Of a stretch of 64,000 bases of DNA, positions 16,869 to 55,700 are shown piece after piece (position 1 is the stretch's first letter; every line of letters begins with the position of its first letter). The DNA comes from Candidatus Moanibacter sp. (GTDB lineage: Bacteria > Verrucomicrobiota > Verrucomicrobiia > Opitutales > UBA2987). The notes beneath the pieces are model-generated. The model did no database searches. It was not told the origin of the DNA and saw only the letters and a list, made by a program, of their open reading frames with translations. The stretch is taken from contig CBDCEW010000094.1 in NCBI GenBank assembly GCA_965215885.1, positions 1 through 64,000 of the forward strand. Direction: 5' to 3'. A program made the position numbers and the translations under genes.

Positions 16869-17175
16869 GAATTAACTCGTAGTTTCTACGTGACTCGAAA
16901 CGGGCCAAACTCCAGCGGTCTGCCGTACGGCAGACCACGCAGATGGACGCGAATGCAGGAGGAAACTCCTACTTCCCTTGGGTAACCTCGTCGCGAATCC
17001 CGCCGAGCGGGATCCCAAACCTTGCCTGCCTCGGCAAAGCGCAGCGACGACGGGTCGACTGCAGTTTATTGAATACCAAACTCTTCTACGCAAAAACTTG
17101 CTAGAAAAACAAGGTTCTGCCGGATTGTAATACAAATTCAATTACTATCAAATCGGCAATTGAGTAGTAGCCCCT

Positions 17176-21986: not shown

Positions 21987-22090
21987 TCCTAGCGCAGCGA
22001 AGCCGCAACCAAAAAAGAATAAGAGAACCGCAGATGAACGCAGATGGACGCGAATGCAGAAGGAAACTCCTACTTCCCTTGGGTAACCTC
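21987..22090 (+). repeat. Dispersed repeat A, partial copy
   Basis: Near-identical to 38908-39010. Confidence 0.8.
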
Positions 22091-22498
22091 TTCTTCGCGT
22101 TTCAGGCTCTGCCCTACAACAGAGAGGTCCCGCTCAGCTGGATCGACTCCTGCCTCGGCGTATGGAATAGGCAATTTCCTGCTTTCCTTATACAAATGTC
22201 AATCTGTGGTCTAAGGAAATTTTCCTGGTGAGACATTCTATTCTGAGAGACAGAACGATATTTCCCGAACAACAACGAGTTGTATTTGCGGCTAGAAATT
22301 TCCTTCTTAAGCAAACAAGCCCTGTCGAGTTAGTAGTAGAGGGGACTTCAGCGGGATCGATGTCGGAAGGGCCTCGAGCTGAGCTCCGTCGCAGGACTAT
22401 TTCCTTTCACTTCCCGCTTCCGGCTCACGTGTGGTGGTTCATTGTTCCAACGGCCAGATTTATATCTTCGAATTTGCCGAACTGGGTACTAGGAATCT

Positions 22499-22504
22499 TA
22501 TAGT
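22499..22504 (+). promoter_or_regulatory. -10 box (TATAGT) of the IS110 circle-junction promoter
   Basis: 17 nt from TTGACG (24178-24183) once the ends are joined. Confidence 0.8.
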
Positions 22505-22509
22505 AGCTC

Positions 22510-22801
22510 CAGGTTATTCATCCAAGGGGCCGAGTGGAGCCGCAGGAAAAACTCGGCGAGGCCCCTTTGTGAATAACTTGGCCGATCAGTGGTTGGCGAT
22601 GGGTCAAAGAGTTTGTTTGGCTAAGGGTGAAAATATTCAAAGGCAGCCGTCCACTACGAACTTAGGAATCAGTCCGAAGAGGACTTCCGACAGAATTTCG
22701 AGTGGACGGCCTGCCTGGATGACCGAAAACGAACACTCAGTTTACATCCTCATAACAGGATCCAACTATAAGGACTTCGCCTGGACATCCAGTGCCTTTG
22801 A
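22510..22801 (+). ncRNA. IS110 bridge RNA (5' hairpin domain, target-binding loop, donor-binding loop); ends approximate
   Basis: Guides TAGGAATC and TCCGACAGA match the target; CTCAGTTTAC and ACTATAAG match the donor junction; each pair lies in an internal loop closed by stems. Confidence 0.85.
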
Positions 22802-22835
22802 AAAAAGCAAAAAGACAAACTAAAGGAACAAAGGG

Positions 22836-24146
22836 ATGCAGAAAAGGGAAAAAACAAATCGATATAGTGTGGTGATAGGAATTGATTGGGCGGATCAGAA
22901 AAACGATCTGTGGATCATAGAGAGCGAAACGGGAAAAGGGACCCATCGACAGGTGGCGCAGGATGCGGTCAGCTTGCACGAATTTGCCGTAGAGATGAGA
23001 GAAAAGTATGCCAGCGTGGGCAAGCGCATGGCCATGGTGGTGGACCAGAAGCGAGGAGGGTTGATCAACTTTCTGATGGGCTTGGAGTTTGTCGATATCT
23101 ATCCAGTGCATGCGGCCAGGGCGAAGGATTATCGCCGGGCGCTGTATCCATCAGGGGCCAAGAGCGACCCGGTCGATGCGCAAATACACGCGGAGTTTTT
23201 CCTCAAACATCCCGAGCTTTTTACCAAATGTTTCATACCTGACACGGCCCAAACACGGGAGCTGAACCTGTTGTGCGAGGACCGCCGTGGATTCGTCGAT
23301 CAGGCTACCAGCCTCGAACAGCAGTTGGGCAGTTGTCTGAAGCAATATAACCCTTTGGTCTTGAAATTGTTCGATGATCTAGGCAGTGGCCTGTGCCTGC
23401 ACTTTATATTGCGTTGGCCGACCCTCAAGAAGCTGCACAGAGCATCGGAGGGTGTCTTGCGAAAGTTCTTCTATAAGCACAACTGTCGCAGTGACGCCAA
23501 AATCCAGGAGCGTCTCGAATTGATCGGTAACGCACGAGCCTTGACCGAAGATGCAGCCATCATTGAAGCATCCAGCAGAAAAGCACAGACGTTGGCCGGA
23601 CAGCTTTTGACCCTGTGCCCGCAGATCAAAGCGTATGAGAAGCGTATCAGGGAGCTATTCAGAAGCCATCCCGATGCAGCCGTGTTCAGTGGCATTCCCG
23701 GAGCCGGCGAGGTCATGAGTCCCCGGTTGCTGTGCGCGTTCGGGACCGATCGTTCGCACTTCGAAACGGCCCAGAACATGACCCAGTGGAATGGATCCGC
23801 TCCGGTCACGATCAACAGCGGGCAGGACAAAAGAACCGGACAACCGAAACGAATGGTCAACTGGCGGTGGGCGGCTCCTACCTTCGTGCGGCAAAGTTTC
23901 GTTGAATTTGCCGAACATTCGATCCGAAACTGTGCCTGGGCAAAGGCCTTTTACCAGATCAAAAAAGAACAGGGCAAACCCCGCCAAACCATTCTTCGTG
24001 CCCTCGCTCTCAAGTGGACCCGCATTCTGTTTCGCTGTTGGCAAAATAGCGAACGCTACGATGAGCAAAAGTATCTCCAATCGCTCCAACGCACCGGTTC
24101 ACCGGTGTGGAAAAGACTTCAGCAAGCAAATGCCAACGCCTTGTAA
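22836..24146 (+). CDS. IS110-family recombinase (RuvC-like DEDD domain + Tnp20 domain)
   Basis: IGIDWADQK, KSDPVDA, GIPGAG, APVTINSG, ILRALALKW. Confidence 0.95.
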   Translation: MQKREKTNRYSVVIGIDWADQKNDLWIIESETGKGTHRQVAQDAVSLHEFAVEMREKYASVGKRMAMVVDQKRGGLINFLMGLEFVDIYPVHAARAKDYRRALYPSGAKSDPVDAQIHAEFFLKHPELFTKCFIPDTAQTRELNLLCEDRRGFVDQATSLEQQLGSCLKQYNPLVLKLFDDLGSGLCLHFILRWPTLKKLHRASEGVLRKFFYKHNCRSDAKIQERLELIGNARALTEDAAIIEASSRKAQTLAGQLLTLCPQIKAYEKRIRELFRSHPDAAVFSGIPGAGEVMSPRLLCAFGTDRSHFETAQNMTQWNGSAPVTINSGQDKRTGQPKRMVNWRWAAPTFVRQSFVEFAEHSIRNCAWAKAFYQIKKEQGKPRQTILRALALKWTRILFRCWQNSERYDEQKYLQSLQRTGSPVWKRLQQANANAL

Positions 24147-24177
24147 ACACAACATGAGAAAAAACTCAAAAAATCCC

Positions 24178-24183
24178 TTGACG
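24178..24183 (+). promoter_or_regulatory. Outward-facing -35 box (TTGACG) in the IS110 right end
   Basis: Pairs with TATAGT at 17-nt spacing in the circular form. Confidence 0.8.
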
Positions 24184-24200
24184 GACTACCTCAGTTTTCT

Positions 24201-24534
24201 GTCGGACTTAGCAATCCTGACATTTCCGAAGTGCAAATTTCAAGGTGAGGACTCGACATTCCGATCCAGATGAGACCGACAGATTCCTTGGAAGAAAATG
24301 AACCTGAGATTTGAGAAATATTTTCATATCAATTCCTTTCTCGAATACAGATCTCATGATTAAAGATTGTCGCTTTCGGGTTGATCGTGTCAATATGGTC
24401 CATAGCGAAACCGATGAGCAAGATTTTGTACGCTTTCCCACAAATCTCAGATTCATTTTCTCAATTCTAGCAGCTTGTCGGAATGAACCCGAGTAATCTC
24501 TTCGAAAGGGGCATAAAGTCCGACAAGCTGCTAG
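24201..24534. repeat. Three consecutive inverted-repeat modules A-B-C (MITE cluster); A interrupted by IS110
   Basis: A right arm 24276-24288; B 24293-24313/24441-24461; C CTAG-CAGCTTGTCGGA 24467-24482 / TCCGACAAGCTG-CTAG 24519-24534. Confidence 0.75.
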
Positions 24535-24577
24535 CATGGGCTACCGGCGGTGAACCGAACGCCGCTGAACTCTAATC

Positions 24578-27500
24578 GTGCGCACACGAAAATCTCTCCT
24601 CGAGACCGCGAAGCTACTGTCCACTGCGATCGGGCTTCTGCTCTGTTGCTGTCTCGGCGGTCTGCTTTTTCGCGGCGACCTGGAGGCGCCCATTCCGGTC
24701 TACACGACCGAGGAACTTGACGCTTACGCCGCGGCGCGCGACACGTCTTTCGATCCAGACAGACCGCTGACCGTCCACCGGGAAGTCGACTACAGCGAAG
24801 GGGCAGACGCGGCGTGGTGGCCCAAGGGACAATCGCCGGTGCTCGATAAACCGGTGGGGGAGGGGAAACTCCCGCCGGTCTACGAGCGTACCGGTCCCGA
24901 ACCAGCCGTCCTCGAAGGAGTCGATGGCACCGGCACCTATGGCGGCACCTGGTACCGCGTCGCCAACGCGACCGGCGACGCGGGGGTGATCAGCTGGCGC
25001 ATGGCGGGCGCGACGCTGGTACGCTGGTCGCCCTTCGGCTATCCGGTATTGCCGCACGCCGCCAAAGCCGTTGAGCAGAGCGCCGACGGCCGGGAATTCA
25101 CTTTTCATCTGCGCCGGGGCATGCGCTGGTCGGACGGGCATCCGGTTACAGCGCGAGACCTCGAATACTATTTTAACAGCCAGTACGTCTGGTGGGACAA
25201 GCTGCCCAACTGGATGTATGTGGGGATCGAACGGCAAGCGGGAACTCTGGAGATTATCGATGACTTCACCGTCAAGTTTTCCTTCCCCCAACCGCACGGC
25301 GTCTTTCTGGAGAGAATGTGCAATGTGTCGCAGTTCTTCCTGCCGCGGCACTACCTCGCGGAATATCATCCCAAGACCGGAAACCCAGCGAAGATTGAGC
25401 CGGAGATGGAGAAGCGCGGCCACACCGAGGCGATTGGCGTCTACAATGAACTTATGGGCTGGAACAATCCGGAATGCCCAAGGATCTGGCCGTGGATATA
25501 CCGCACCCACACCGCGACAGCGCCTTTCACCTTCGTGCGGAACCCCTATTTCTGGGCCGTCGACCCGGAGGGAAACCAGTTGCCCTACATCGACCAGGTG
25601 CAAATCGACGTCAAAAGCAACGAGATGATCGCATTCGCCGCGGCGACGGGGGAGATCACCTTCCAGCGCCGCCACATCCGCCCCGAGGACTACACCCTGC
25701 TGATGTCGAGCCGGGAGGGCCACGGCTACGACATCTACCACTGGTATCCGACGTTTACCAGCAACTACACGGTCTTTCCGAACATGAACCGCCGGATCGA
25801 GCCCGGGGATCCGGTGACGCGCAACAAGCACGCGGTGCTCAACGACCTGCGCTTCCGCAAGGCCTTGAGCCTCGCCATCGATCGGGAAACCATCATCGAG
25901 ACCGAATATTACGGGCTTACCGAACCGGCCCAGATCGATCCGGGCCCGCCTTCGCCCTTCCGCTACCCGAAGCTCCGCAAAGCGTTTATCGACTACGACC
26001 CGGACCGCGCCATTGCCCTGCTGGACGAAATGGGGCTGAGCAACCGCGACCGCGAAGGCTACCGCAACTTTGCCGATGGCACGCGCATGCAGTTTTACAT
26101 CCATACGAGCGAATGGACGGGTCCCGGTCCGGCGCAATTTCTGATCGACGACTGGAAGGCGGTGGGCATCCGCGTGGTGTTGCGCGACCGCACGCGGAGG
26201 TTGTTCGGCACCGAGCAGGGAACCCTCGTCCACGATCTGTCTGTATGGTCGTCTATGAGCGAGTATGTCCCTCTTCTCAGTCCCCGAAATTTTGTCCCCT
26301 ATGGCAGATCCAGCTTCTACGCTCCAGGATACGGCACCTGGTACGCCTTGGGCGGATTGGCAGACCCGGATTCGCAGAGAATCAAGGATAGCCCCTTGGC
26401 CATGGAGCCGCCGGTTGGCTCAGTGTTCCGCCAATCCCAGGTACTCTATTCCCAGGCCCTGGCAACTGCCGATCGCGAAGAGCAAATAGCAATCATGCAC
26501 CAGGTCTTCGATATCGCCGCCGAGAACCTCTGGACCATCAGCATCTGCACCAGCCCGCCGCAACCGATCGTGGTGTCCAAACGGCTGCGCAACGTTCCCC
26601 GCACCGCAATCGCCGGCACGATCTTCTTCACGCCGGCCAACGCCGGTATTGAAACCTTCTACTTCATCGACGACGACAACGATAACCAGACGCAGGCCGA
26701 GATTACGCGATCGATGACAGAGGTCCGCTCCCGTTTCGACGACGCGGGCTCGATCTTCGGGGCCATCCTGGGCGCAATTGTTAAGTGGCTCATCATCGGG
26801 AGTGTGGCTGCATTCCTGTTCCTTATGGCGGTGCGCCATCCCTTTGTTGCGCGGCGCCTCGTGATCATGGTGCCGACCCTGTTCATCATCTCGGTTGTGT
26901 CCTTCATCATCATCCAACTGCCGCCAGGTGATTTCCTCACCACCCGGATCACCCAGTTGCGCATGGCGGGAGACGAGGCCGCCGTTGAACAGGCCCAGCA
27001 AATGGCGGCGCTGTTTCACGTCGAAGAGAACAGTTTCCAGCGCTACTTGAGGTGGATGGGGCTCCACTGGTTCGCAAGCTTTAACTCCACCGACGCCGGC
27101 TTGCTGCAGGGCAGCCTCGGACTGTCCATGGAGGACGGCAAGCCGGTGAACGAAAAAGTCGGCGACCGCGTGCTCCTCACCGCCCTGATCAGCCTGCTGG
27201 GCATTCTCGTCACCTGGAGCCTGGCGTTGCCCATCGGCATATACTCCGCCGTGCGGCAGTACTCGATTCCCGACTACCTCTTTACCCTGCTCGGTTTCAT
27301 CGGCATGAGTGTGCCTCCGTTTCTCTTCGCCCTGGTGTTGATGTACCTGGTAGACGCGTGGTTCGGGGTTTCCGCCTCGGGCCTCTTCGCCCCCGAGTAC
27401 GCGGGCAAGCCCTGGAGCTGGGCGAAATTCGTCGATCTGATGCAACATATCTGGCTGCCGGTCATCGTCATCGGGATCGGCGGCACGGCGGGGATGATCC

Positions 27501-34315: not shown

Positions 34316-34575
34316 GATCCACCACTGATAAGGATGTAGAGATGGTCCTCCGGACACGGTTCTCTTGAAGGTGATAGAGCAGAAGATCGTGCGGCGGAGC
34401 GCCCGATCCACCGCTGAAAGGTTGTAAGAGGTAGAGCGGACCCTCCGGACACGGTTGTTTGAAGGAGGCAGGGCAGAAGATCGTGCGGCGGAGCGCCCGA
34501 TCCACCACTGAAAGGTTGCAAGAGGTGGACCGGGTCCTCCGGACACGGTTGTATTATGAGTCGGAAGGGCAGAAT
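34316..34575. repeat. BIME-like tandem of alternating REP-like palindromes, about 2.7 units of 89-94 nt
   Basis: GATCCACCRCTGA at 34316, 34405, 34499; CCTCCGGACACGGTT x3; AGAAGATCGTGCGGCGGAGCGCCC x2. Confidence 0.8.
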
Positions 34576-38907: not shown

Positions 38908-39098
38908 TCCTAGCGCAGCGAAGCCGCAACCAAAAAAGAAGAAGAGAACCGCAGATGCACGCAGATGGACGCGAATGCAGAAGGAAACTCCTACTTCCCT
39001 TGGAAACCTCGTCCCAAACCTTGTCGACTGCAATACATTGAATATCAGTCTCTTCTACGCCAAACTTTGCTAGAAAAACAAAGATTATACGGATTGTA
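38908..39098 (+). repeat. Dispersed repeat A, uninterrupted copy
   Basis: Aligns with 21987-22090, 15043-17129 and revcomp 10282-10336. Confidence 0.8.
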
Positions 39099-49032: not shown

Positions 49033-49361
49033 ACGTTTAGTAGTCTTTATCGACGATGCTTCACTGAATAGGACTCGATCTCATTGAAACTACGAACAGC
49101 GCGAATGAAAGTGAAGAGGAATGATCGTTTCAAGCATGAAGGTGTCTGAAGAACGGAAAGTACACTCAGTGGGATCGATGTCGAAGGAGGGTAAATTCTC
49201 CACGGATTCGAGAAAAACGCGGATTTGAGAGATTACTGCCCATCCGTGGTACTGCGGAGCCATCCGTGGGTAACTCTCCCTCTTCGTTCTCTCTGTTTCC
49301 TTCTGTTAAATCTTCATAAGCAATGAACTACCACTTGTTGTTAATCCGCGGGGAACACCAC

Positions 49362-50558
49362 CTACATCCAGGGCGAGAGATCGAAGCGCTGACCGGTTTC
49401 GGCGGCTACGTAGGCGCCGTAGCAGACCGCCACGATGTCGCGTGCCAATCCGATGGAGCTCTTGGGGGGCCGATCGTGAGCAATCGCCTCGCAGAAATCC
49501 TGAAGTTCGTGAGGGAAGCCGTTCATCCAGTCTTCATCCGGATTCGTAAGCTGCCAGCCGGCTCGAGTTTCAACCTTTTCGCGGATGTAGGCATCACCCA
49601 GGACTTTATCGTCCGGTACGTAGGTCATCATGCCCGAATTGGGATTCAGGTTGCACTGCACGACTGCTTTACTCGAGTAAACGGTGAGAACGTTCTGGAT
49701 TCCGCCCAGGACCATATCGGCGGCGGTGATCTGGGCTACGGCGCCGTCTTCGAAAGTGAGAATCATCGAACCCCAGTCTTCACAATCCTTCCATCCCGTC
49801 TTTATCCATTTTTCTTTTTCTTGGCAGAAGCTCTCCATCTCGGTGAGGTTGGCCACTTCCGCGACGACACTTTTGGGTTTGATAGGTTTGCCGAATTTCC
49901 GCTGCCCTTCGCTGTATTTAAGGTAGAGGATAGCTCCGAGCGGGTGACAGCCCTTGTTGAAAAGACTACCGCCGCCGGCAAAGCGCCAGATCCTGGCGTA
50001 TTCGGAGTGTGTGCCGCTATGGGATTCTTCGCCCACAAAGCGCAGTATGGTATTATCGCTCTGCGAGAGGATGTAGTCAGCCTTTTGGACGTTGGGAGCG
50101 TAGACCCAGTTCTCTCCGTAGCAAAGGGTGACACCGTTAGTTTCCACCGCGGCCATCATTTCATCAGCAGACACAAGCGCGGTCTCAAACATCTCTTTGC
50201 GGGGCGTCTCTTTTCCAACAAGCGTATCCCCGTCACCACCGAAATAGCCGGTAAGAGGCTTCTCGCAAATAACGTTCTTACCGGCGGTGGCGGCTTGCAC
50301 CGTGAGCGGATGATGGAGGTAATTCGGAATACACAAATCCACCAGGTTGATCTCCGGATCGGCAAGTAAATCCTCTACCGAAGGATAAACCTTTTCCAGC
50401 TCGTGCTCCCGGGCGAATTTTGAAGCGTTCTCGGACTCCTTCGAAGTCACGCCTTTGATGCGAACGTCGATTCCGTGCACGCGTCTGTAATTTTCCAGAT
50501 GGAAGGACGCCGCGAAGCGCGCCCCCACCATACCGATTACGACGGGTTTTGGTTTCAT
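49362..50558 (-). CDS. Gfo/Idh/MocA oxidoreductase
   Basis: GMVGARFAA, NVICEKPL, GGGSLFNKGCH. Confidence 0.92.
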   Translation of the reverse strand: MKPKPVVIGMVGARFAASFHLENYRRVHGIDVRIKGVTSKESENASKFAREHELEKVYPSVEDLLADPEINLVDLCIPNYLHHPLTVQAATAGKNVICEKPLTGYFGGDGDTLVGKETPRKEMFETALVSADEMMAAVETNGVTLCYGENWVYAPNVQKADYILSQSDNTILRFVGEESHSGTHSEYARIWRFAGGGSLFNKGCHPLGAILYLKYSEGQRKFGKPIKPKSVVAEVANLTEMESFCQEKEKWIKTGWKDCEDWGSMILTFEDGAVAQITAADMVLGGIQNVLTVYSSKAVVQCNLNPNSGMMTYVPDDKVLGDAYIREKVETRAGWQLTNPDEDWMNGFPHELQDFCEAIAHDRPPKSSIGLARDIVAVCYGAYVAAETGQRFDLSPWM

Positions 50559-50945
50559 CGGTTAATACTAGATTCGCGAAGGAGATAGGGTCAACCGCGT
50601 TCGGCAGAGTTTGCTACGAACCCGCTCAGCCGGAGACGATTTTGAAGGGACCGTTGGAAAATAATGCGCAGACAGTTAGCTCACTGATGCAGTAGCAATC
50701 CGGTGTCCAGACTCGTCGGAATACTGAATTGCTTCGCCATGCTTCCTCGCAAAGACAAGCCTCGATGCGAGTTGGTTCGACCGGGGTCCGGCTAATCGGG
50801 ACGCTCCTACATCCCTCGCGGGTAGTCGGGCAGGGTCGAAACACCTCATCACCGTCAGGCTGTAGGAGCGGCTTTATGCCGCGAGGCGAGCTGTTTCATC
50901 GCAGTCCCGCTGAGCAGTACGCTTCTACAATCTCTGGCGGGTGGG

Positions 50946-52208
50946 TCACCGGGAACCAGCTGTAGGACCGAGTCTCAATTGCTCTTTGCCGCCGAACACT
51001 TTGGCCAGGGCTTGTATGATCGACCGGAGCATCTCCTCGTCGGCGAGGAGCGTATTCTGAGTCAACCACAGGGCTTGCTCCGAACAGGCACTCTCCACAT
51101 TGCGAAGGTGAAAGCGACGGAAGTCGGGTAATTCCTGATCAAAAAATGCGGTTGGACCACCCTTTGCTCCAAAGTTTCGATCCGTGAAAAGGGGTTGCTT
51201 GTAGACGGGAAGAGAATAACCGGGACTCACGGGAATGCCTTCGGCCAGAATCGCCTCAACGATCTGCTCTTTCCCGATTTCGCCCCAGCACGCTGTGTCG
51301 ATCCTGAAGACAAAGAGATGCCAGGATGATCGCGATTCCACGTCCATCGGTGTGAGGGTTTTGAAGCCCTCTATCCCCTCGATTCCGTCCCTCAGGAAAC
51401 TCGCCGATTCCTCCCTCTGCCTCTGCAGAGACGGATAGCGATTCAGCTGCGCTTTCAAAACGGCTCCTTGAAATTCCGTTAGACGATAGTTCCCGCCGTA
51501 GCTGTGGTGATCATACCAGGGACCCTCATCTGCCCGTCCACAATTCGCTATAGAGCGGCTCGCAGCCGCGAAATCTGGATTATTCGTGATAATCATTCCG
51601 CCTTCCCCGGCCGTGATGTTCTTGGAAGATTGAAAACTGAAACATCCTGCATCACCGAGCGTTCCGACATGCCTGCCTTTGTATACACTGCCCCAGGCCT
51701 GGCAGGCGTCTTCAATAATCCGCAGATTGTGCTCTCTTGCGAGATGCCTCAACGCATCCATCTCCGCCGGCCTTCCCCCAAAATGGACGGGGAGAATTGC
51801 TTTGCTTCGAGGCGTAAGCGCTTTCAGGACGCTTCTCGGATCAATGTTGAAAGTCTCCGGCTCGATATCCACAAAGACCGGCTTTGCATAAGCGTCCAGG
51901 ATCGCCGTCGCGGATGCCACAAACGTGTAACTCGGCAGAATAACCTCATCGCCGGGCCCTATGCCTGCAGCTCTCATGGCGATGGCAAGCGCAGTCGTCC
52001 CACTCGTCGTGGCTATGCCGTATTTCGCGTTGTGGAAGTCCGCGAAGCGCTGCTCGAATTCACTGACTTCCTCTCCATTAGTCGATCCCCACTTTCCGCT
52101 TTCGAGCACGCGTATAAGTCCCTCTTTCTCCTCGTCGCCAAACACCGGCCACGCAGGAAAGGGGTTCCGGTTTGTCGGGGATCCTCCCGTTAGCGCCAAC
52201 CGCTCCAT
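50946..52208 (-). CDS. DegT/DnrJ/EryC1/StrS PLP aminotransferase
   Basis: SGTTAL, IIEDACQAWG, FSFQSSKNITAGEGG, NYRLTEFQGA. Confidence 0.95.
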   Translation of the reverse strand: MERLALTGGSPTNRNPFPAWPVFGDEEKEGLIRVLESGKWGSTNGEEVSEFEQRFADFHNAKYGIATTSGTTALAIAMRAAGIGPGDEVILPSYTFVASATAILDAYAKPVFVDIEPETFNIDPRSVLKALTPRSKAILPVHFGGRPAEMDALRHLAREHNLRIIEDACQAWGSVYKGRHVGTLGDAGCFSFQSSKNITAGEGGMIITNNPDFAAASRSIANCGRADEGPWYDHHSYGGNYRLTEFQGAVLKAQLNRYPSLQRQREESASFLRDGIEGIEGFKTLTPMDVESRSSWHLFVFRIDTACWGEIGKEQIVEAILAEGIPVSPGYSLPVYKQPLFTDRNFGAKGGPTAFFDQELPDFRRFHLRNVESACSEQALWLTQNTLLADEEMLRSIIQALAKVFGGKEQLRLGPTAGSR

Positions 52209-52672
52209 CGTTTTTAACTTGGCAATCTCCCGTACCGGCAAGCCGGGACGGGGTCGCTGATTTTCTCAAGCATCATCGTGCGCGGAGCACCCGATCCAAC
52301 TGTTGGAAAGATGCCCGTGGTGGAACCCGTCTTGGTTGCGCAAGCGCAACGCCGAGGCAGGCGGCCCCCTTGCCACGCCGTAGCTCTAACCAGCGGGATT
52401 CAGGACGGTGCGTAGGCGCGGGTCCGGGGACGTTTGTTTCATTCAGAATCTCACACAATTTCCGGGGCTTTGCAAATCCAAGGTTAAAGAAAATATGGGT
52501 TCCGCCTTGCTCGACGTCAAGATAACGGGCCTGTCGCATGCAACCGCCGCCGCCCACGCATTGCGGGGCTGTGGCGTGTCAAGAGCGAGCTTCCCATCCC
52601 GGTGGGCCAGGACCTTGACTGCTGTGGGCAGGCGTCTCTCGGTCGAGCTCGAATGTGGATGCGCGTTTGATA

Positions 52673-52713
52673 TGGCCTATGTTCGTATTTCGGCGAAATA
52701 CGAACATAGGCCA
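52673..52713. terminator. Perfect 19-bp hairpin downstream of the FtsX-like gene (terminator or processing site)
   Basis: TGGCCTATGTTCGTATTTC-GGC-GAAATACGAACATAGGCCA; no clear U-tract. Confidence 0.4.
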
Positions 52714-52743
52714 GTGTTTGGGCATCCATGGAAACGACGAGTA

Positions 52744-55700
52744 CTATTTGGGTTCTCGTGAGGAAGTGTGTGAGATTTCTTGGAGCCTGACGGACTCGGC
52801 CGAAAGGCTTCTGCCCGTTAGCCGATCTCTCGCTTCGGTGAAGAGTTCCTGGCGGTTGTCGGGGCTGAGAGCGCGCCAGTGGAGGAAATGCTGCCGGATC
52901 TGCGAGACGAAGTCTTTGTTAAGCCGGAGCCAGGAATCGCGAGTGCCGGAAAGGCGTTGGATTTCAATGCGGACTTTGTATTCCCGCGCTTCTTCATCGG
53001 GCGGCATCGCGATGGCCAGTTTCTGGGAGACGCCGAGGTCGAAGGGTTTGAGCCCGATTGTGGCCGTGATGGAAGGCACGTAGGAAGAACCACCTTGTGG
53101 ATTCGGTTCAGGATCGAGAGAGAGCTCCGGTTTCTCGGAGAAAAAGCGCCCCGCGCCTCCCTCGCCGTGGTCGAGAAGCTTTCGATCAAAGAATGCAAGG
53201 ATGCCTATGTGCCCGCGAAAGTTGAAGGTAAAGGGGAGATGGAAGCGCAGGTAGTCACCCTCCGGCTCCGGCAGGCCCCAGCCCGCATCCTCGGTAGGCG
53301 CGGCGATCTCCATGGCCGATCGGGCGGGGAAGTAAGTCGAAACCAGGACGGTGCCGAAGAGTGCGAGGGAAGCGTAAACAGTGGTGAGTGAGGTGAAGGT
53401 CATGTTGAGGCCGCCGGTCAGGTCGAGAGCGGTGAGAATACGGCCTGTGCCCTGACTCAGAGTGTATCCCAGAATCGATCCCACGACGGCATAGACGAAA
53501 GCTTCGGTAAGAAACATGAAAAAGACGTAGCGGGGAGCGATACCGAGCGAGTTGTAGACGTAAATCTCGTCGCGCCGTTCGTAAACGGATCCGCGCATCG
53601 TGTTGAGGACGGTGAAAGCGGCGATTAGCAAAGGTATGGCAAGTTCGAGAAGATCACCCAGGTCGGCCTCTCGCGTGCGCCGCGCCCAATAAGCTACACC
53701 ATCGAGGCCGTATGAAAGCGGTTTGGCGGTCTGTTCGAGGTAACTCTCGACCACCTGTCTCACTTCCTTGTGCCCGGCTTCGGGTATACCGATGGCCACG
53801 GAGATGAACCGCCCCCCTCCCTGATTGGTCATGAATCGGTGGTCGCTGTAGGGCGCAAGAATGACATTTTTGGGCGGGATCTTGGGATCGTCTTCGTTGG
53901 CCACGACACCGGTTCCCCATCCTTTGGTGGTCAACACATCGATAGCGGTAACGTCGAAGGGCAGGAGTCGGTAGCCGTCCAGATCGGTCATGGCATCGTA
54001 AGCTTCCGAGTCGAAGATACCTCGCACGAGGCATTCCTCGCCGTTAATCCAAACCGTCACGGCCTCCCTGTTGACCTCGTTGACCGAGATATTCAACCGC
54101 TCGGCCATGGTGTCGGGAATGAAAACTGGGATGAGGCTGTCGGATTCGATCTCGTCGTTCTCAGTGAACCAGGTCTCTTCGGTGAGGAAACGGATCTTGT
54201 GCCGCATCGGCTCATTGTGTTTCAAACGGATGACGGATTCGAATTCCACCTTACGCAGTCCCCCCTCTCCTTTGTAACTGATTGTAAGATCGGGATTCTT
54301 ACGTCTGCGGTCCCGGAAGTCTTCGTAGCCAATCATCATGTAGCGCGGGCAAATGTCGTATCGATCACCGTATTTTTCGTGAATTGCCTGGATTTCGCCG
54401 GCATGGAATGGCGCCATCTGCTCGTGCTTGAGGAGCAGGCCCTGGTAAGGCGCCTTTCCCACCGCGAAATTCTCCTCCACGAGGTCATCCTGAACGGAGG
54501 TGAAGCAGATAATAACGAAGGTGATCAGCGTAAGGGTGGCGCAGGTGAGACCGGTGCGGACTTTGCGGCGGTGCATATTGTTAAGGCCGAGCATGAAGGC
54601 TGAAATCATGACACCCAGCTTGTTGACCTCGGCCGCACTCACCCTTCCTCGTTTCTTCATCAGCTCGCGGAAGTTCTCCTGAAACTTTCCCGAGAAGAGA
54701 ATGGTAATCGTGATGGAGATGAGAATAATGATGAAACCCAGCAGAATCATGAGGGAAGACCGCACCATCGTGAAGGCCGGGTGGAGGAAGCGCAGGAGAG
54801 CGAACACAACGATGAAAATAACGGTCTGGGCGATGATCTGCTTGCGAACGTCGGAAAAACAGAAGAGGAGTTTTTCGAAGAAAAAGATGAAGGGGACGAG
54901 AAGAGCCAGGTACCAGAGTATACCCGCTACGGCTTCGAAAATGGACTCCCGCAGCTCGGGATGATTGAGGGTGGCGTAGGTCACCGCCTGGCGCGCTTCC
55001 TGGATCGACGCCTTCTTACTCAGGGAAGGGTCCCGGCTCTGCTCGAGGTGGGTGAGAACCTTATCGTGGTAGTCGTTTGTTCGCTCATCGGCCATGCCGT
55101 AGGCGTTCTGTAGATCGAGCCGGCGGCCATTGACATAGGCCATGGAGTGGGCCACTTCGGAAGGGAGATCGCGCAGATAAGGATGATCGCTGACGAGGTA
55201 GCCGCCGCCGTCAATTTCCCGTTTCAGGCTTTCCTTGGAAGATTCATCGACGTTTGTCATGAAGGCGCGGGTGACCTTGGCGCGTTCGTGCTCTTGAGCC
55301 CCTGACTGCAACTCCACATAACAGCGTTGGTCCGGTTCCAGAAAGGTGGCCACAAGCCCCGTGCTCTCAAAGAGACAGAATCGATCCGGAGGTACCAGCC
55401 CCTGGCTCCGGATCATCTTGACCCCCGTATACTCTTTGAGGGTCTGCGGATTGGTCAGGTCCAGAAGGGTCATGGGGGAGGCCGGGAAAAGGACGAGGGT
55501 CAGATCCTGCGCCCGCCACCACGGAACCTTGATCGACTTGAAGACCCGTTGGTTCGCATCCCCTTCGTCTTTTATATGGGATATGAAACCATCTGCTCCG
55601 ATCTTTGCGGCGAGCGGAGCGATTGTGCCCCCATCTCTCCCCACATTCCAGAATACGGGAAAATCGTTGTAGTTTTTCGATGCCTCGTAACGTCCATAGA

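Follow-up and report, generated by a model that had tools for sequence, protein, structure and literature searches.

The 64,000-nt stretch of DNA that we analyzed (the window) carries an IS110-group insertion sequence at 22497-24200 on the + strand, running from CT core to CT core (1,702 bp plus one CT). Very probably, this element is intact and likely still active, encodes a bridge RNA in its left end, and works by an IS621-like mechanism. The bridge RNA is genuine and very probably programs the element for its own target; it is a further example of a mechanism first described in 2024, and the mechanism itself is not new. The source genome (6.36 Mb in 105 contigs, completeness of 90.3% and contamination of 5.47%) holds 10 full copies, which share the ends 22497 and 24200, 100% identity, and intact reading frames, in addition to a further copy truncated at a contig end and a fragment of 210 nt. 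All 10 full copies contain the RNA (212.5 bits each against a covariance model). A plasmid collection yielded no named element, only generic "IS110 family transposase" labels at identities of <40%.

We read the ends of the element from its two junctions. The left junction is TAGGAAT-CT-TATAGT (22490-22504), where the left target half TAGGAAT with the core CT (22490-22498) is the outer part of a host repeat's inverted end and matches the left target guide, and where the right donor half TATAGT (22499-22504) is the reverse complement of the right donor guide. The right junction is CTCAGTTTT-CT-GTCGGAC (24190-24207): the left donor half CTCAGTTTT and the core CT form the element's right end (24190-24200), matching the left donor guide at 9/10 positions, and the right target half CT-GTCGGA follows with the remainder of the ~94-bp host repeat (24199-24288), which includes a second, inverted target copy at 24276-24288. 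Both junctions of all 10 copies are CT, and intact sites have a single CT; the product is a simple insertion with CT on each side and nothing else duplicated. The left end is 339 nt long and holds the RNA, while the right end measures only 54 nt (24147-24200).

The structured RNA lies at 22637-22801 on the + strand, as do all features described here. A 181-nt stretch folded to -66 kcal/mol, compared with -37.3 ± 3.9 kcal/mol for shuffled sequences (z = -7.27, 0/200 as good). An outer helix (TCAAAGGCA at 22637-22645 with TGCCTTTGA at 22793-22801) encloses the stretch 22636-22802. The original prediction, which had described the stems and guides of this RNA, gave coordinates and motifs that all proved correct when read directly in the sequence, and its suggestion that the outer helix can close the whole unit is borne out by covariation, since 10/10 pairs of this helix vary on both sides in 34 distinct family sequences. 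Within the helix, the target-binding loop module (22646-22710) consists of stem, guides, hairpin, handshake AA, and stem. Its stem (GCCGTCCACT at 22646-22655 with AGTGGACGGC at 22701-22710) is lengthened by an inner CGAA/TTCG helix, and the left target guide TAGGAATC (22663-22670) is followed by the 5-bp hairpin AGTCC-GAAGA-GGACT (22671-22685) and then by the right target guide (22686-22693). The donor-binding loop module (22715-22792), whose sequence is strongly conserved family-wide, is closed by CTGGATG (22715-22721) and CATCCAG (22786-22792) and contains the left donor guide CTCAGTTTAC (22736-22745), an ATCCT/AGGAT hairpin (22746-22761), and the right donor guide ACTATAAG (22765-22772), the reverse complement of CTTATAGT, with GA following at 22773-22774. 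Upstream of both guide loops, a long 5' hairpin is predicted at 22510-22580; the same stem motifs are kept in the ortholog of a related genome (G006) and in three verrucomicrobial loci (L051, L052, and L072), and by analogy this hairpin probably corresponds to the 5' stem-loop of IS621. We also considered it as a read-through terminator and rejected this, as a scan gave no support and the hairpin sits downstream of the putative junction promoter described below. A search of Rfam 15, which may or may not include a bridge RNA family, gave no match at an E value of up to 1 in 22000-24700.

Next, we looked into how the four guides match the target and donor of the element itself. The left target guide agrees with the left target half at 8/8 positions and covers only the first base (C) of the core, and the left donor guide matches the donor at 9/10 positions; this last match and the reverse-complement right donor guide are both present in the sequence as predicted. 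All four matches have the expected strand sense, with the 5' sides of the loops complementary to the bottom strand and the 3' sides to the top strand of target and donor, core included. When we shuffled the mononucleotides of the 165-nt RNA 20,000 times, the longest exact matches (8, 10, 8, and 8 nt) were reached singly in 259, 19, 231, and 283 shuffles; 11 shuffles reached at least two of them, and no shuffle reached all four. The central claim of the original prediction, an IS621-type bispecific bridge RNA with four guides for its own target and donor, stood. The single mismatch of the left donor guide is the base just before the core and recurs family-wide; the same pre-core base of the left donor guide is the mismatch-tolerant position described for IS621 (PMC11208160).

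The length of the right target guide needed revision. It had been predicted as the 9-nt TCCGACAGA (22686-22694), the reverse complement of T-CT-GTCGGA, and this complementarity is real. In IS621, the core-pairing part of each 3' guide is followed by two bases that act as handshake guides; they pair with positions 6 and 7 of the other DNA after strand exchange, and when they pair with their own DNA, the reaction is blocked (PMC11208158). By analogy, the last A of TCCGACAGA and the next A (22694-22695) are probably such a handshake dinucleotide, which would pair with the donor TT after strand exchange. Because that last A is best read as a handshake base, the guide proper is best read as CT plus 6 nt, for a total of 8 nt. 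The AA is complementary to the donor TT, and the 10-nt run of guide and handshake, TCCGACAGAA, shows perfect complementarity to the recombinant right junction TT-CT-GTCGGA. For the first handshake A, pairing with target position 7 (T) is possible as well, and this ability to pair with its own target is a partial departure from the IS621 rule. The GA after the right donor guide would form only a G-U wobble with target position 7.

We then evaluated the insertion sites of the 10 copies; that other copies should occupy sites matching the guides was a check named in the original prediction. Nine of the 10 lie in AGGAAT-CT-GTCGG with differing outer flanks, as the target loop predicts. At the left junctions of these nine, the outermost base is T in 6 and C in 3, followed by AGGAAT-CT; at the right junctions, CT-GTCGG is followed by A in 7 and by T in 2. 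Because only the two outermost bases vary among the nine sites, 13 target positions (AGGAAT-CT-GTCGG) are constant. The symmetric target of about 15 nt that had been predicted needs refinement: the reconstructed 15-mer occurs intact 124 times genome-wide, and only 13 of its positions are invariant at the occupied sites. The 12-mer GGAATCTGTCGG occurs 276 times genome-wide. The target forms the inverted end of a host repeat of ~94 bp, for which we found 49 perfect pairs of ends, 34 of them 94 bp in length, and the element in the window occupies the left end of one of these repeats, which runs on to 24288. The repeat unit, with its inverted ends AGGAATCTGTCGG (22490-22498 together with 24199-24288), resembles a miniature inverted-repeat or REP-like element.

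The tenth copy (C84:54652-56355; L010 and L131) lies in a donor-like site, CCTCAGTTTA-CT-TATGGGG. The left half of this site matches the left donor guide at 10/10 positions, including the A that mismatches the true donor, and its right half has CTTAT in common with the donor. The flank carries genes for prephenate dehydrogenase, EPSP synthase, and cytidylate kinase; given these housekeeping genes, the site is ordinary chromosome, and it lies upstream of a 510-amino-acid reading frame without a Pfam match. Insertion into donor-like sites has been described as a side reaction of IS621 and IS622 (PMC11208160; 10.1101/2025.05.14.653916; 10.64898/2026.08.31.748434), so the tenth copy fits the mechanism and does not refute it. 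We considered the cut copy at C84:1-491 as a second, independent donor-like insertion and rejected it, as its 5.4-kb flank with housekeeping genes is 99.6% identical to that of the full copy; a duplicate arising from strains or assembly is more likely. This 5.4-kb stretch occurs twice in the contig, inverted (C84:1-5900 and 49270-54651), with each occurrence abutting a copy of the element, and given the contamination of 5.47%, the duplication is probably a strain mixture or an assembly artifact.

A natural comparison was provided by G006, a genome of the same family and another genus, which carries a 79 to 80%-identical ortholog. The recombinase was present in only 2/41 genomes searched (the source genome and 40 relatives), namely, the source genome and G006, where we found 26 matches at about 75 to 80% identity. 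We examined 18 of these 26, for which the left junction was readable in 16. All 18 loci contained the RNA, with one sequence in 16 of them and a one-base difference in 2. The left target guide in G006 is TAGGAGGC, which differs from that of the source element by one base; between the two RNAs there are also two compensatory stem changes and one broken pair. The left junctions in G006 were TAGGAGT-CT in 15/16 loci, TAGGAGG-CT in 1/16, and AGGAAT in 0/16; the right junctions were CT-GTCGGAC in 17 loci and CT-GTTGGAC in 1. Intact sites in G006 (924 in total by the 13-mer pattern) comprise 591 AGGAAT-CTGTCGG, 237 AGGAGT, and 96 other sites, and by our own calculation the chance of finding 0/16 copies at AGGAAT if sites were taken at random is about 1e-7. 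In the source genome, where sites number 256 AGGAAT versus 7 AGGAGT, all nine on-target copies are at AGGAAT. Because the G006 copies avoid the commonest variant, AGGAAT, and use the one that matches their guide, these results indicate that guide position 6 tracks the site used. Guide position 7 of G006, mismatched at 15/16 sites, is tolerated as a mismatch. On contig C1 of G006, AGGAGT- and AGGAAT-type sites also occur about 243 to 244 bp apart on the same strand (for example, 170227/170470 and 375307/375551), which suggests a second, composite repeat in that genome.

We performed a similar analysis across the wider family. A total of 1,548 homologs had E values of <1e-40, with only three clusters at >55% identity. 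A scan of genome contigs with the single protein found no relatives, and an alignment-based scan gave 79 homolog loci from many phyla (34 to 46% protein identity). The covariance model, built from the two RNAs of the source genome and G006, gave full-length + strand matches immediately upstream of the recombinase gene in 47/79 loci and none in the other 32. Among 34 distinct sequences, 92.1% of the cells were paired, and 44/48 pairs changed on both sides. The covariation score was 0.618, compared with 0.171 for shuffles (0/500 reached the observed value) and 0.07 to 0.11 for slid partners, with the alignment being fitted to the model, which favors structure. All seven helices were supported, the outer helix included, and the stems accept G-U pairs. 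Conservation is seen in the donor loop and variability in the target loop, a pattern likewise described for IS621 relatives (PMC11208160).

The original prediction had proposed that guides should covary with insertion sites, and the distant orthologs bear this out, as does the one-base change in G006 with its changed site. We placed the element ends from the donor guides only and then compared the target guides with the flanks. The 44 rows reduced to 34 nonredundant guide pairs, for which the left end could be placed in 18 (16 dropped) and the right end in 12 (22 dropped). In the 18 loci with a left end, the longest run shared between the left guide and its own left flank had a median of 8, compared with a mean of 3.05 against other loci, and the corresponding values for the right guide and its own right junction in 12 loci were 8.5 and 3.67. 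In neither test did any of 10,000 permutations reach the observed sum; with the right guide common to the source genome and G006, these two are not independent in this respect. Read by eye, the right guide pairs with CT plus 5 to 6 flank bases in 10/12 loci, the other two having 3 and 0 contiguous bases. The long right guide of CT plus 5 to 6 nt is therefore a clade-wide trait. Many of the dropped loci form a subgroup with a different donor sequence: L097, L098, L073, L093, L099, L088, L113, L123, and others have a donor loop of the CTATATTGCC type and right ends of the CTCAGGG type, for which the end-finding rule failed, and this subgroup possibly has a core other than CT. Separately, among the insertions whose left flanks were read, two (L005 and L007) lie about 30 nt past a GGTTCGATTCCC-like stretch, which we take to resemble the 3' part of a tRNA gene.

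The guide-flank results also bear on whether the structured left end could be a mere leader of the recombinase mRNA, acting in translational or stability control, with its matches to target and donor being incidental. Transposase mRNA leaders are often structured, and this RNA sits immediately upstream of the gene, with 35 nt between its end and the start codon. However, the four matches occur in the strand sense and order of IS621 and are never reached together by shuffling, and the guides change with the flanks both across the family and between the source genome and G006, for which a leader offers no reason. We consider a leader with incidental matches extremely unlikely and retain the bridge RNA.

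We next assessed how the RNA might be expressed. When the element's ends are joined, TTGACG (24178-24183), a putative -35 box, lies 17 nt from TATAGT (22499-22504), which would be the -10 box; the right end of the G006 ortholog likewise contains TTGAC. We infer a putative junction promoter, TTGACG-17 nt-TATAGT, that would form on the joining of the ends, as described for IS621 (PMC11208160). In the integrated element, a simple sigma-70 scan found 0 promoters, compared with 1.2 expected, and weak RNA expression from genomic loci has been described for IS621 (PMC13626964). Seventeen public runs hold at least half of the sampled words of the stretch; 9 studies contributed the 20 holder runs, which include two RNA libraries from a single study. 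In these two metatranscriptome runs, contigs cover 22491-22791 and 22552-22785 with word depths of 13.7 and 21.5, compared with 2.6 to 5.9 for contigs of neighboring genes, and they stop where the contigs of two DNA runs continue. These contigs give a weak hint that the RNA is expressed, as RNA libraries could contain DNA.

Expression is relevant to a further possibility, namely, that the motifs act as DNA, either as protein-binding sites that mimic target and donor or as structure in a single-stranded DNA circle. [quoted passage not shown] On the other hand, the same architecture in IS621 and ISCro4 has been solved as recombinase-bound RNA, and those PDB entries are the best fold matches of the present protein; moreover, the stems accept G-U pairs, and the RNA-library contigs, weak as this evidence is, cover the region. 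Motifs working as DNA thus have, in our estimation, only a minimal chance of being the explanation, and we continue with an RNA guide.

The sole long reading frame adjoining the RNA is the recombinase gene (22836-24146), which encodes 436 amino acids with PF01548, the RuvC-like DEDD domain (E value = 1.2e-17, 64.5 bits versus a cutoff of 29), and PF02371, the Tnp domain (38 bits versus a cutoff of 21.3). Residues D17, D111, D114, S328, and G329 are invariant in 34 aligned homologs, and S328-G329 align with the ESG of ISCro4. The second tetrad residue, D70 (23043-23045), is Asp here and in the 3 closest homologs and Glu in the other 30 aligned. The acidic tetrad D17/D70/D111/D114 together with S328-G329 are the predicted catalytic residues. 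Sequence similarity to both solved bridge recombinases is remote (E value of about 1e-4). An AlphaFold2 model made from 34 homologs (pLDDT = 88.8, pTM = 0.84) had as its 10 best Foldseek matches IS621 (8WT6 and 8WT9) and ISCro4 (9T56), with the whole protein aligned (E values of 1e-12 to 8e-12, TM of 0.64 to 0.66 by target length, identity of 16 to 17%); Nop5-type proteins ranked after these, with TIGR-Tas proteins among the followers.

The unusual Asp raises the question of whether the bridge RNA is genuine and the element is nevertheless a dead relic in the source genome. In addition to the D where E is usual, no public-run contig joins the right end to the left end; contigs drop rare forms, so this is uninformative either way. 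In contrast, the 10 copies are 100% identical with intact reading frames, the D is common to the G006 ortholog, which has 26 matches in its genome, and one DNA run (X1, at window position 22488) joins the element to a left flank unlike that of any of the 10 copies, suggesting a further insertion site in a related population. A relic is accordingly very unlikely, and the element is best regarded as probably still active.

The proposed mechanism follows that of IS621. The ends would join at the shared CT, which fits the sequence and would create the donor site CAGTTTT-CT-TATAGT along with the TTGACG-17 nt-TATAGT promoter. Transcription into the left end would then yield an RNA comprising a 5' hairpin plus a three-way junction that bears two internal loops, a predicted structure backed by covariation. 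The donor loop would pair with both donor strands, CTCAGTTTAC with the bottom strand, leaving the pre-core base unpaired. The target loop would pair with the inverted ends of the ~94-bp repeat, where TAGGAATC would bind the bottom strand and the top strand of CT-GTCGGA would be bound by TCCGACAG; the target-loop match and its specificity are established by the natural insertions. By analogy with IS621, the recombinase would cut after CT and exchange strands, and the AA after the right target guide would then pair with the donor TT as the handshake. The end product, an insertion with CT on both sides, is what the 10 copies show.

Compared with IS621 of Escherichia coli, the element is alike in having its RNA in the left end upstream of the gene, with a 5' stem-loop, a variable target loop, and a conserved donor loop (PMC11208160 and PMC11208158). 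It also shares the CT core, the pre-core mismatch in the left donor guide, the probable handshake dinucleotide after the right target guide, the targeting of a repeated host sequence, and the protein fold, and it has a putative promoter across joined ends. In contrast, identity by structural alignment is only 16 to 17%, D replaces E in the tetrad, and the left end described for IS621 is 191 bp versus 339 bp here. The IS621 recombinase has ~326 amino acids versus 436 here, the surplus being mostly a helical insertion in the coiled-coil region (138-277 here versus 123-188; PMC11208158). Unlike in IS621, a conserved 10-bp outer helix here encloses both loops, which are separated by a 4-nt linker. 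Furthermore, the right target guide is 8 nt here versus 4 nt in wild-type IS621, and the IS621 right guide has already been engineered to 7 nt (PMC11208160).

IS622/ISCro4 of Citrobacter rodentium (10.1101/2025.05.14.653916; PDB 9T56) has the same fold, and its reported donor-donor recombination into donor-like genomic sites recalls the tenth copy; ISCro4 is given as 88% identical to IS621 (10.1101/2025.05.14.653916), and the present protein is far from both. By description, ISPpu9 and ISPpu10 of Pseudomonas putida and other REP-inserting IS110 elements likewise hit one conserved, many-copy intergenic repeat (ISPpu10 is mentioned in PMC11208160), whereas here the repeated unit spans ~94 bp and has inverted ends, each containing a target. 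The IS1111 group (IS4321 and IS5075; seekRNA) also combines a DEDD recombinase with an RNA guide, and for IS4321 and IS5075 the targets are inverted ends of other transposons (PMC11208160). In that group, the RNA is described as lying downstream of the gene, within a long right end, and the subterminal inverted repeats as long (PMC11208160); the present element, with its RNA in the 339-nt left end and a right end of 54 nt, has a different layout. Bridge RNAs are predicted in 85.7% of catalogued IS110-group elements (PMC11208160), and in terms of genome biology this is an ordinary case of an IS110 element colonizing a host repeat.

We also evaluated whether the element represents a structurally distinct bridge clade, with an RNA of ~290 nt, a three-way junction closed by the outer helix with a 4-nt linker, a right guide of CT plus 5 to 6 nt, and a recombinase longer by ~110 amino acids with an enlarged coiled-coil. 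This proposal is tentative and, on balance, doubtful. If it were true, the closed junction would force either a two-RNA synapse or another synapse geometry; in the IS621 synapse, the two loops lie about 80 Å apart and are thought to come from two RNA molecules (PMC11208158). Moreover, the longer natural guide could then raise intrinsic specificity, with 13 to 15 bp read and a natural single-base discrimination at position 6. Bridge recombinases are under development as programmable tools for DNA insertion, excision, and inversion. According to 10.1101/2025.05.14.653916, structures have been solved for the IS621/ISCro4 lineage only, and in one screen 18/72 orthologs gave a detectable product in human cells. 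The present element is a distant ortholog whose native substrates are well defined by nine on-target insertions, and four features of it are worth keeping: natural retargeting by one guide base between two orthologs, a natural insertion at a donor-like site, an outer helix that encloses the loops with a 4-nt linker, and the clade-wide long right guide.

Other repeats were seen in the window. Another repeat family occurs at 21987-22093, 38908-39014, and 16937-16992 (96 nt at 98% and 56 nt at 84 to 96%), with the first of these lying a few hundred bases upstream of the element, and two tandem 94-nt units that are 89% alike lie at 34365-34552.
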